Shown here: positions 38,546 to 40,683 of the stretch, piece by piece
Position numbering within the stretch: the first letter of the stretch is position 1
Layout of the letters: each line of letters opens with the position of its first letter
Assembly: GCA_024413465.1 (NCBI GenBank)
Contig: JAKSVU010000001.1
Coordinates: forward strand, 21,949-85,948
DNA: 64,000 bases
From: Alphaproteobacteria bacterium
GTDB taxonomy: Bacteria > Pseudomonadota > Alphaproteobacteria > CAAGCB01 > CAG-977
Direction of reading: 5' to 3'
Translations under genes and position numbers: made by a program
The notes under the pieces: model-generated
Seen by the model: the letters and a program-made list of their open reading frames with translations, nothing else
Databases searched by the model: none
What the model was told of the DNA's origin: nothing

Positions 38546-38623
38546 CGCGGGATGGAGCAGTCCGGTAGCTCGTCAGGCTCATAACCTGAAGGTCGTGTGG
38601 TTCAAATCCCACTCCCGCACCCA
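38546..38623 (+). tRNA. tRNA-Met (CAT anticodon), initiator type
   Basis: The sequence aligns closely to bacterial tRNA-fMet (CGCGGG..TGGAGCAG..GCTCGTCAGGCTCATAACCTGAAGGTCG..TTCAAAT..CCCGCA-CCA). It has the C1-A72 mismatch and three G-C pairs in the anticodon stem, and CCA is encoded. The T-stem has one extra T, giving a bulge. Confidence 0.8.
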
Positions 38624-38625
38624 AT
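38600..38625 (+). repeat. Left copy of the 26-bp direct repeat (tRNA T-loop through CCA+AT); attL-like
   Basis: GTTCAAATCCCACTCCCGCACCCAAT is repeated at 40623-40648 with 25/26 identity. Confidence 0.8.
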
Positions 38626-38788
38626 AGTTTAAAGGTTTTGAGATAATTCTTGAAGCCTTTTTCTTTTTCCTATGGGGCATTAGTTAAGACAGTTATGAAA
38701 AATTTCAGATAAAGACAAAAAAGTTTAACTTCAGAAATATAGGATAGAAGTATATAACATTCTTATCTTTTTAGATGAAGGCATTTGT

Positions 38789-40561
38789 ATGGGAATTAGA
38801 TTAACAGATGAAAATAGATTGTCGACTACTTATCCAGAATTAGCTACTGAATGGCATCCTACAAAGAATAACGGATTAACACCAAATGATGTTTCATTTG
38901 GATCACATAGAAAAGTTTGGTGGCTCTGTAAAAAGGGACATGAATGGATCGCAAATATTAGTAATAGAACTAAACATGGTAGAGGGTGTCCATTCTGTAG
39001 TCACCAGAAATTAGAAGTAGGAGTTACTGACTTTGAATCAGTATGTCCAGAGGCTGCAAAAGAATGGCATCCTACTAAAAATGGGAATTTAAAACCTTCA
39101 GATGTGATGTTTGGTACACACAAAAAAGTATGGTGGTTGTGTAGTAAGTGTGGATTCGAATGGAAAGCAGAAGTAAAATCTCGGTATTATGGTTGTGGTT
39201 GTAGTAGATGTAATAAAGGTGCCTTTTTTAATATTCCTATTGTTGGCATTAATGATTTGGCAACAATAAGGAGTGATTTAGTTAAATATTGGGATTTTGA
39301 AAAGAATAGTCCATTGACACCAAAAGATGTTACTTATGGTAGTGGCAAAGTTGTATGGTGGAAATGTAAAAATGGACACGAATACAAATCATCTATAGAT
39401 AGTAGATTAGTGTCGAATAATTGTCCTATATGCCTTCGTAGAAGAAGAACTTCATTTCCAGAACAAGCTATTTATTACTATATAAAACAAAAGTATCCAA
39501 ACGCTATAAATAGTTATAAAAATATATTTGATAAGGGAATGGAGTTGGATATTTATATTCCAGATATTAAAATAGGAATAGAGCATGATGGTACATATTT
39601 TCACAGTAGTCATATAAATATTGATAGAGACAGTCGGAAATATGAGATATGTAAGAATAATAATATTAGACTGATTAGAATAGCTCATAATAGAAAGTGC
39701 AACAAACAGAATGCTGATTGTATAATTGAATATAGTAGAAATACTGATTTAGAAATTCAGAAAGCAATTATTTCTCTCTTTGAAATTCTTAATCTTGATT
39801 TTTCAGATATAAATATAAAAAGGGATAAATTTGAGATTCTTCAATACTTGGAAACTATGGATTTATCATTAGAGTCAGCATATCCTTCAATAGCAGCCGA
39901 GTTCAATATTGAAAAAAATAATGGTTTGTTGCCTTCTTATTTCCATCCAGGTTCAAATGAAAAAGTGTGGTGGAAATGTAATGCATGTGGACATGAATGG
40001 AAAGCAACAATTTGTGGTAGAACAAGAGATGGAGATGGATGTTCTTTATGTGGACGTGTACGAGGGGCAAAGAAAAAAGTTTTATATCACTTAAACATTA
40101 ATGGTAGTTTGGAAGAAAATAGTCCAGAATTATTAGAATTTTGGGATTATGAAAAAAATGATATTTTACCTTCAGAAATTATTGCTACATCAACTAAAAA
40201 AATTTGGTGGAAATGTAGTTTTGGCCATGAATGGAGTAGAGATTTAGCTAATATTTTAAGAAAGGGAAAGGGGAAAAATAAATGTCCTTATTGCGAAAAC
40301 AAGCGTATATTACCGGGATTTAATGATTTAATTACAAAAAATCCAAAACTTGCTAGTGAATGGGATTATAAAAAAAACACAGATATAGATCCAACGACAA
40401 TAGGAGCAGGATCTAGTAAAAAGGTATGGTGGATTTGTGGTAAGTGTGGGTATAGTTGGTGTGCGTTAATTTGCAGCAGAAATCAGGGGTGTGGATGCCC
40501 TCAATGTGATAATCAAAGAAAACGTGGTAATCAATATGCGAAAAAATATATCGAAGAATAG
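38789..40561 (+). CDS. Multi-zinc-ribbon protein with central Vsr/DUF559-like PD-(D/E)xK endonuclease domain (590 aa)
   Basis: Six repeats of about 55 aa have the pattern L..EW...KN..L.P.DV..GS.KKVWW.C..GHEW.......R...GCP.C (three N-terminal, three C-terminal). The central segment ELDIYIPDIKIGIEHDGTYFHS...DRDSRKYEICKNNNIRLIRI matches the DUF559/Vsr endonuclease core. Confidence 0.7.
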   Translation: MGIRLTDENRLSTTYPELATEWHPTKNNGLTPNDVSFGSHRKVWWLCKKGHEWIANISNRTKHGRGCPFCSHQKLEVGVTDFESVCPEAAKEWHPTKNGNLKPSDVMFGTHKKVWWLCSKCGFEWKAEVKSRYYGCGCSRCNKGAFFNIPIVGINDLATIRSDLVKYWDFEKNSPLTPKDVTYGSGKVVWWKCKNGHEYKSSIDSRLVSNNCPICLRRRRTSFPEQAIYYYIKQKYPNAINSYKNIFDKGMELDIYIPDIKIGIEHDGTYFHSSHINIDRDSRKYEICKNNNIRLIRIAHNRKCNKQNADCIIEYSRNTDLEIQKAIISLFEILNLDFSDINIKRDKFEILQYLETMDLSLESAYPSIAAEFNIEKNNGLLPSYFHPGSNEKVWWKCNACGHEWKATICGRTRDGDGCSLCGRVRGAKKKVLYHLNINGSLEENSPELLEFWDYEKNDILPSEIIATSTKKIWWKCSFGHEWSRDLANILRKGKGKNKCPYCENKRILPGFNDLITKNPKLASEWDYKKNTDIDPTTIGAGSSKKVWWICGKCGYSWCALICSRNQGCGCPQCDNQRKRGNQYAKKYIEE

Positions 40562-40622
40562 CTATATAGGATGGATTGTTTTTTTTAGTTGAAGCAATTC
40601 TTATAAAACTGAAAGTCATGAT

Positions 40623-40648
40623 GTTCAAATTCCACTCCCGCACCCAAT
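40623..40648 (+). repeat. Right copy of the direct repeat (partial tRNA 3' end); attR-like
   Basis: GTTCAAATTCCACTCCCGCACCCAAT is present here, with no upstream tRNA body. Confidence 0.8.
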
Positions 40649-40651
40649 AAA

Positions 40652-40683
40652 AAAACTCAGGATTTAATTCTGAGTTTTTTTTA
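40652..40683. terminator. Bidirectional rho-independent terminator (ACTCAGGA..TTCTGAGT with T-runs on both strands)
   Basis: The hairpin has an A-run before and a T-run after. It serves the island gene (+) and ccrM (-). Confidence 0.7.

Follow-up and report, generated by a model that had tools for sequence, protein, structure and literature searches.

A nuclease-encoding segment bounded by copies of the initiator tRNA 3′ half in a gut alphaproteobacterium: a candidate homing cassette

Direct repeats of tRNA 3′ ends are routinely taken as proof of integrase-mediated integration. How should such a repeat be read when the unit that it bounds is only 2 kb long and holds nothing but a homologue of homing endonucleases? 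The question is raised by a 64,000-nt stretch of the chromosome of a gut alphaproteobacterium (contig JAKSVU010000001.1, positions 21,949–85,948; hereafter the window), in which a segment of 2,023 bp (38627–40649, forward strand) lies between the initiator tRNA (tRNA-fMet) gene and the terminator of the methyltransferase gene ccrM. The window has the segment and two contigs of the same species (L040 and L041) lack it, as judged from the empty site and from the spacing of the repeat. An earlier interpretation made without database searches (the sequence-only reading) had proposed that about 2.0 kb of foreign DNA was inserted here by site-specific recombination, the element being a decayed remnant, mobilised in trans, or moved by its own nuclease in a homing-like manner. 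The structural facts of the locus are solid and the mechanism that we propose for it is testable: tentatively, and with slightly less than even confidence, we favour a free-standing homing-endonuclease gene (HEG) cassette at the 3′ end of the initiator tRNA, with tRNA-derived flanks that would act as homology arms.

The segment, its ends and its empty site

The only tRNA gene in the 64-kb window is a functional initiator tRNA-Met (CAT) gene of 78 nt (38546–38623, forward strand), which ARAGORN ends at 38623 and Rfam, with a tRNA score of 56.6 bits, at 38620. A C:A mismatch at the first base pair is a hallmark of bacterial initiator tRNAs, and the gene as read from the sequence has a C1:A72 mismatch, together with a C at position 73 and an encoded CCA. 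In its T stem, the 5′ strand contains an additional nucleotide, a bulged T at 38598. Because the same 78-nt tRNA, bulge included, is conserved across 26 related species (L004–L029), we regard it as real and not as an assembly error.

The 26-mer GTTCAAATCCCACTCCCGCACCCAAT at 38600–38625, which includes two bases past the tRNA end, recurs at 40623–40648 with a single C-to-T change, at 40631, just as the sequence-only reading had described. Allowing up to three mismatches, we found no further match to it in the 64 kb and none in 100 shuffles. The repeat search extends the similarity to a direct repeat of 44 nt (left copy 38583–38626, forward strand, located by the repeat search and the 26-mer search; right copy 40606–40649) with 86% identity and a spacing of 2,023. 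Its perfect core is the 18-nt sequence CCACTCCCGCACCCAATA (38609–38626 and 40632–40649), which starts in the T arm and ends 3 nt beyond the CCA, and the segment boundaries given as 38627 and 40649 can be slid to any point within this core. If one indel is allowed, the right copy resembles the tRNA as far back as the anticodon loop (about 40598): the 24 nt that immediately precede the right 26-mer, aligned with the tRNA from anticodon loop to T stem, give an anchored score of 15, against a null of 7.4 ± 1.7, and a fraction of 5e-5 of random window segments reach 15. The earlier statement that no tRNA body precedes the second copy must accordingly be divided, as a decayed 3′ half does precede it and a 5′ half is not demonstrable in the right arm (a GGATGGA 7-mer only, p ~0.02). 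Nor is the 26-mer a generic dispersed repeat, the case in which the insertion hypothesis would have lost its footing, for it occurs once per genome in 26 species-representative genomes, nearly all of them alphaproteobacterial metagenome-assembled genomes (MAGs) from gut or rumen, and always within tRNA-fMet.

Between the repeat copies lies a single gene-like open reading frame (ORF) of at least 50 amino acids (aa), at 38789–40561 and 590 aa long, in agreement with the sequence-only reading; that reading also saw no recombinase inside, and none is there by the ORF listing, Pfam and NCBIfam, the 590-aa ORF matching no recombinase or transposase family. A repeat search found no terminal inverted repeats in the segment. 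A direct repeat around a single-ORF segment might call to mind an insertion sequence or transposon with its target-site duplication; we rejected this reading, which has next to no probability, on the missing inverted repeats and transposase match, and a tRNA-derived repeat of 44 nt is moreover far longer than target-site duplications.

Evidence that the segment is variably present was obtained by an exact look-up of the window's CcrM protein, which led to three contigs of the same species (L039–L041; 99.3–99.6% nucleotide identity). In two of these, L040 and L041 (99.3–99.4% nucleotide identity, identical CcrM), the ccrM terminator directly abuts an intact tRNA-fMet 3′ end: the sequence that follows the terminator, ATTGGGTGCGGGAGTGGGATTTGAACCTCACGACCTTCAGGTTATGAGCCTGACGAGCT, is the reverse complement of 57 nt of intact tRNA-fMet, within which the contigs end. 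An empty site of precisely this order, tRNA-fMet and then the terminator and ccrM, had been predicted. L040 and L041 cannot, we reason, be assembly chimeras of the filled allele, because the right copy shares no more than 18 consecutive nucleotides with the tRNA, a run below the k of 31 that the assembler used. The flanks differ from the same-species contigs by ~0.37%, or about 1 base in 270, with no excess near the junctions (those closest to them lie at 38301 and 40682), and the sole difference between the left, working tRNA and the empty-site tRNA is the bulge at 38598, T in the filled and A in the empty allele. The bulged base is also T in L024, and it is A in the right-hand copy and in 25 of the 26 related loci. 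As L039–L041 share one set of single-nucleotide polymorphisms (SNPs), two haplotypes are represented, namely the filled MAG and one empty lineage that was recovered from several runs. The segment is a real integrase-less insertion/deletion variant within one species.

Directly 3′ of the right copy stands a bidirectional terminator (40649–40681), an A-tract/T-tract hairpin with a 15-bp stem, followed by ccrM and rnhB as the sequence-only reading had it. The terminator is native, being found by the terminator scan and at the same position in L039–L041 and L034, and it is common to ccrM and, in empty-site strains, to tRNA-fMet. L034 represents a sister species (SRR18398425; 85% nucleotide identity over ccrM–rnhB, CcrM 97% identical) whose homology to the window ends exactly at 40649. 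Between its tRNA end and the same terminator, L034 carries a gene for a 136-aa GNAT acetyltransferase (2246–2912 of that contig) with no tRNA repeat; this insert begins with AGTTTAAGG and a hairpin, the lead motif AGTTTAAGG being all that its trailer has in common with the trailer in the window. The junction of tRNA end and terminator is therefore a variable spot with at least three states in close relatives.

The two ends of the segment have different histories. At the right end is a decayed tRNA-fMet 3′ half (40598–40649, forward strand; alignment and repeat search), which runs from the anticodon loop to the 3′ end plus ATA and is perfect over its last 18 nt. Relative to the native empty-site tRNA it has six substitutions and a 1-nt insertion in ~52 nt: C-to-A, G-to-A, G-to-A, G-to-T and C-to-T within 40606–40631, and a C-to-T together with an inserted A in the anticodon-loop part. 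All six substitutions change G/C to A/T, as neutral decay would be expected to do in a genome with a G+C content (GC) of 31%. The flank rate of ~0.37% predicts ~0.2 changes in 52 nt and seven are observed (Poisson tail ~1e-9), which excludes recent displacement of a native 3′ half in this lineage as the origin of the right copy. The changes mark it as an old fossil, part of the segment and travelling with it. A recent tandem duplication of the tRNA was considered and is out: the decay of the right copy has gone too far for it, and relatives carry the tRNA singly.

At the left end the segment begins with a tRNA trailer (38627–38673, forward strand; terminator scan, local alignment and blastn) that contains a terminator-like hairpin (38631–38660). 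These ~50 nt 3′ of the left tRNA, which comprise a hairpin and a T run, are missing from the same-species empty-site contigs. Their homologue is the tRNA-fMet trailer of L007 (CASFRQ010000206.1), a distant lineage of 42% GC that has no other similarity to the window: the trailers align with a local score of 39, against a null maximum of 30, and tRNA plus trailer give a blastn match of 136 nt at 86% identity (E=2e-38). The similarity suggests that the trailer hairpin was imported together with the nuclease gene. Taken as a whole, the segment has a GC of 31.5% against 31.3% for the window, and the claim of a foreign 2.0-kb insert holds in that there is a discrete, repeat-bounded unit; it is not established as to foreign composition or site-specific recombination.

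A trailer homologous to that of a distant lineage would also be accounted for by a chromosomal fragment imported from a related bacterium through ordinary recombination, with the tRNA as left homology, microhomology or an illegitimate join on the right, and no dedicated mobility function. A tRNA identical across 26 species offers portable homology for such an exchange, and no recombinase is present. We nevertheless judge this origin improbable: RecA acting unassisted would have very little homology to work with in an 18-nt right arm, and why the regenerated tRNA tail should lie exactly in register with the native terminator is left unexplained.

The single gene of the segment

The intact gene (38789–40561, forward strand; ORF listing, Pfam and PHROG) encodes a 590-aa protein, MCQ2965171.1 of an uncultured alphaproteobacterial MAG, in which three DUF4379 modules precede and three follow a Vsr/EDxHD-like nuclease domain. 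Pfam recognises six DUF4379 treble-clef zinc modules (E=1.7e-112), with only weak restriction-endonuclease matches in the centre, and six VWW-C-(x)n-C motifs stand near aa 42, 113, 188, 392, 471 and 545. Among PHROG families the protein matches ‘HNH endonuclease’ (1e-44), ‘endonuclease’ and ‘homing endonuclease’ (6e-16, aa 211–307); PADLOC returns a weak ‘HEase’ match alone (E=0.0019), and NCBIfam has no match to the protein.

The central nuclease domain (aa 215–352; 39431–39844, forward strand), characterised by alignment, PDB profile search, an AlphaFold (AF2) model and Foldseek, is common to nearly all homologues among the 120 matches listed. An alignment of 25 family members has an invariant E (in FPEQ), E-x-D (ELD), E-x-D-G (IEHDG), H and K, all of which are kept here, and the invariant acidic and histidine residues are probably catalytic. 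A profile of the domain has one significant match in the PDB, 3r3p, the catalytic domain of I-Bth0305I (E=4.7e-5). The AF2 model built from the domain alignment, with a predicted local distance difference test (pLDDT) of 91.3, again has 3r3p as its best match in Foldseek (probability 1.00); this model was used in place of a whole-protein AlphaFold prediction from the single sequence, which reached a pLDDT of 31. By profile and by predicted fold, the central domain belongs to the EDxHD/Vsr homing-endonuclease lineage.

I-Bth0305I is the prototype of the EDxHD/Vsr-like family, has a footprint of ~60 bp and tolerates single substitutions (PMC3239194). Phage-intron proteins that combine three to five CapR/DUF4379/DUF723-like modules with an EDxHD/Vsr-like domain have been described as a large unrecognised outgroup of homing endonucleases (NAR 2025; PMC12350094). 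The protein of the segment resembles this multi-CapR/DUF4379/DUF723 group in its modular array of small zinc DNA-binding domains, and relatives are free-standing genes in phages; it differs in that its nuclease domain lies in the middle of the protein, between two sets of three zinc modules, and not at the C terminus. With EDxHD/Vsr homing endonucleases generally it shares, besides the nuclease domain, presence or absence at a defined site in near-identical genomes. Unlike them it lies in no intron or intein and resides in the chromosome of a gut alphaproteobacterium, and its activity and target are putative.

The wider family, with at least 7,700 matches to the DUF4379 plus Vsr-like architecture in one search, includes free-standing genes in Listeria phages of the A511/P100 type, in Campylobacter phages (as ‘putative homing endonuclease’), in Bacillus phages and in giant viruses. 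The closest homologue, P0019, is 62% identical and is encoded on a 42% GC contig in an unrelated context with no tRNA, and the next, P0024 (54%) and P0040 (49%), likewise have unrelated neighbours and no tRNA. The sequence-only reading had suggested looking for other copies of the gene at tRNA 3′ ends flanked by tRNA-derived repeats. Among 93 loci of nuclease relatives (three from protein look-ups, 10 viral and 80 metagenomic), six have any tRNA within the stored flanks of up to 4–10 kb per side, none is adjacent to one, and there is no tRNA-tail repeat; the longest exact flanking repeat at these loci is 15 nt, against 18 nt here.

That the gene is intact and rare bears on a further explanation, namely that the arrangement is an old resident, either an ancient insertion or a decayed second tRNA copy, that is now immobile, and that the empty site arose by a recent deletion between the 18–26-nt repeats. 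Such a deletion would yield precisely the empty site that is seen, and with two haplotypes only it is a natural counterpart to insertion. The long neutral decay of the right copy, with six of six substitutions from G/C to A/T in a 31% GC genome, speaks for long residence, as does a segment GC equal to that of the host, and the left hairpin, which resembles native L007 trailers and shares AGTTTAAGG with L034, could be ancestral. Several observations make the explanation unlikely all the same. At this junction the sister species L034 carries a GNAT gene without any half-tRNA; no copy of the protein at 90% identity or more was found among ~15 billion proteins, despite the species having been assembled from at least four other runs; the bulge of the empty site is A, where a deletion through the core should have retained the T, unless the T is a later SNP; and an intact ORF with all catalytic residues calls for a reason for its maintenance.

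Possible routes by which the segment could have been gained or lost

The conventional reading of the locus would be an att-flanked element without an integrase, that is, a cis-mobilizable or decayed mini-island for which a tyrosine recombinase located elsewhere, or since lost, joined attP to the tRNA-fMet 3′ end, with the nuclease as cargo, for example of a defence or restriction-like kind. It draws on the tRNA 3′-end direct repeat with its 18-nt perfect core, on the exact empty site, and on the second cargo, the GNAT gene, at the same junction in L034, as an integration hot spot would predict. Cis-mobilizable elements (CIMEs) that have kept attL and attR and lost the integrase are documented (PMC5704250), and the segment resembles tRNA islands and CIMEs in its tRNA 3′-end repeat, its regenerated tRNA and its exact empty site, and CIMEs also in having no integrase.

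Several observations weigh against this origin. The attL/attR-like ends are kept, with no integrase inside, yet the right end has decayed except in the 18-nt core, with mutations at the positions where an anticodon-loop integrase would have its overlap; loss of an integrase after a recent integration predicts a near-perfect attR. The left arm is homologous to the native tRNA trailer of another lineage and is not element-specific DNA. A classical integrase attL/attR pair is a poor match to the locus for these two reasons, the decay of the right copy and the nature of the left end. The segment carries no recombinase, and we found none near tRNA-fMet in the 26 related loci, where the 10 longest ORFs within 3.5 kb downstream were judged by eye to be housekeeping or effector-like and the six scanned with Pfam matched no recombinase family. 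No viral contig was found with the 18–26-nt core as attP or with the junction sequences of the element, and thus, unlike typical tRNA islands and CIMEs, this one-gene unit has no cognate integrase or helper in the loci and viral contigs examined. The GNAT insert of L034 lacks a tRNA repeat, and it would be a coincidence that the sole gene should come from a homing-endonuclease lineage. We consider an att-flanked element rather unlikely, if somewhat less so than old residence. Should the segment be a cis-mobilizable element or an old resident gene, it would be an ordinary strain-variable islet.

Homing offers another route. Free-standing phage homing genes such as seg and mob of T4, which spread by ‘intronless homing’, are intergenic, selfish single-gene cassettes, and point changes close to the insertion distinguish their HEG-plus from their HEG-minus alleles, as is also the case for the two alleles here. 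Unlike the segment, the T4 cassettes reside in phage genomes and have no duplicated target-gene segment. The duplication has a parallel in the mobile-ORF (mORF) elements of fungal mitochondria, known from atp6 of Allomyces and from atp6, atp9, cox2 and nad3 of Glomus, in which a gene core is followed by an inserted 3′ end, an endonuclease ORF and the displaced native 3′ end, and for which endonuclease-driven mobility has been demonstrated in Allomyces (PMC3630166). The anatomy of the segment is the same, with a tRNA 3′ half (38583–38626) and its copy (40598–40649) on either side of the ORF, and there is no recombinase in either system. The host gene here is a tRNA gene and not a protein gene, and mORF endonucleases are of the LAGLIDADG or GIY-YIG kinds. 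In mORF elements the inserted end is foreign and the displaced copy like that of relatives, whereas here the left copy is 1 nt from the same-species tRNA and is followed by a distant-lineage trailer, and the displaced copy is strongly diverged.

The homing cassette that we favour starts from what is directly established: a presence/absence variant with exact, repeat-bounded ends, the family of the nuclease, an interior free of recombinase genes, an old right copy and a foreign-like trailer. Its parts would be a tRNA 3′ portion that replaces the native one and brings its own trailer hairpin, a single gene for an EDxHD/Vsr-type nuclease with multiple zinc modules, and the old decayed tRNA 3′ half, which ends in the 18-nt perfect tRNA tail. 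We infer that the nuclease cuts this site and drives the copying. In a cassette-free genome it would cleave the uninterrupted tRNA-fMet region, and the break would be repaired off a cassette-bearing copy, with the tRNA body as left homology arm and the 18–26-nt tRNA tail plus the sequence beyond as right arm. The repair would insert the gene, restore a working tRNA at the left end and bring the fossil half-tRNA in at the right end, with no need of an integrase. The bulge difference at 38598 and the distant-lineage trailer together have the look expected of a donor-derived conversion tract, and the tolerance of I-Bth0305I for substitutions would fit the many changes in the fossil copy. We also count in favour of homing that the ORF is intact, with all invariant residues of the nuclease domain. 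The homing cassette thus would account for a single intact homing-type gene, the missing integrase, the donor-like trailer, the clean flanks and the travelling fossil. Among the three options left by the sequence-only reading, the third, a nuclease that is itself the mobility function, gains real support from the EDxHD/Vsr homology.

A number of points weigh against homing. Cleavage and homing are activities that we infer for this nuclease. A direct repeat of a tRNA 3′ end is the classical signature of a tyrosine integrase and is not typical of homing, and the tRNA repeat is not a trait of the nuclease family. The displaced copy is more diverged than in the mitochondrial mobile-ORF elements, where it is near-identical to that of relatives. 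The working left tRNA is 1 nt from the presumed target, which leaves a single base on which self-immunity would have to depend. With no more than two known haplotypes, insertion is indistinguishable from deletion. The closest homologue of the nuclease is just 62% identical and sits in an unrelated context.

A bolder extension, which we think possible and on balance doubtful, is that the homing gene made the initiator tRNA a portable landing pad, a break in the tRNA-fMet of any member of the clade being repaired by copying the cassette in and regenerating the tRNA. Islands with tRNA-tail repeats could then arise independently of integrases, and the mitochondrial mobile-ORF elements would have a counterpart in bacteria. 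Should the nuclease be what drives the process, some of the integrase-less islets found at tRNA genes would turn out to be homing cassettes and not decayed islands, and the large, unstudied DUF4379 plus Vsr-like family would gain a testable target, 60–80 bp of tRNA-fMet plus terminator. The parts of the unit are of known kinds; what may be new is their combination in a chromosomal bacterial, integrase-less, single-gene cassette bounded by a tRNA 3′-half duplication and with an empty site in the same species. We found no description of such a combination, and the papers found to mention DUF4379 do not cover it.

The flanking genes and the locus in relatives

The right-hand core flank of the segment is ccrM (40687–41775, reverse strand), which encodes an N6-adenine methyltransferase (ORF listing; Pfam N6_N4_Mtase/RAMA on homologues), and rnhB lies beyond it on the same strand. 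The other ORFs of the window are of the housekeeping kind by Pfam (best 25 of 91 families). Adjacency of tRNA-fMet and ccrM is confined to the window's species and the sister species. In L035 (GCA_024407875.1; CcrM 81%), compared with window positions 40687–49349, the nifJ–rnhB–ccrM block has the opposite orientation with respect to the HD-domain and argS genes, and there is no tRNA-fMet beside it.

On the other side, the upstream order of GidA-like, rhodanese, pentapeptide-protein and Sel1-protein genes followed by the tRNA is kept in five of the 26 related species; the downstream genes differ, and none is ccrM. We rejected the use of the 26 GTDB species with the same tRNA tail as empty sites, as they are too distant and have no ccrM downstream. 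Contigs anchored on the upstream Sel1 gene are uninformative on the site, all of them stopping inside the tRNA at the A/T bulge. More generally, the short-read (Logan) contigs L030–L033, L040 and L041 all end in the tRNA gene, those on the Sel1 side just before the bulge, so that assemblies of this type systematically interrupt tRNA-flanked variants such as the present one.

Two further observations concern tRNA-fMet itself. Three unrelated high-GC phages (L132–L134, from IMG/VR) carry, between structural genes, a tRNA with the same T arm and acceptor stem and a different anticodon arm. Finally, in nine of the related loci (L006, L008, L009, L012, L014, L015, L016, L028 and L029) there is a conserved GC-rich stretch ~40–110 nt downstream of tRNA-fMet, past the tRNA terminator; this stretch, which has no Rfam match at gathering score, reads GGTGAATG.AC.TC.CAGGTTCGGCCGAAGCG.AGCGCAGGCAACGCCGGAACG and resembles a structured RNA.

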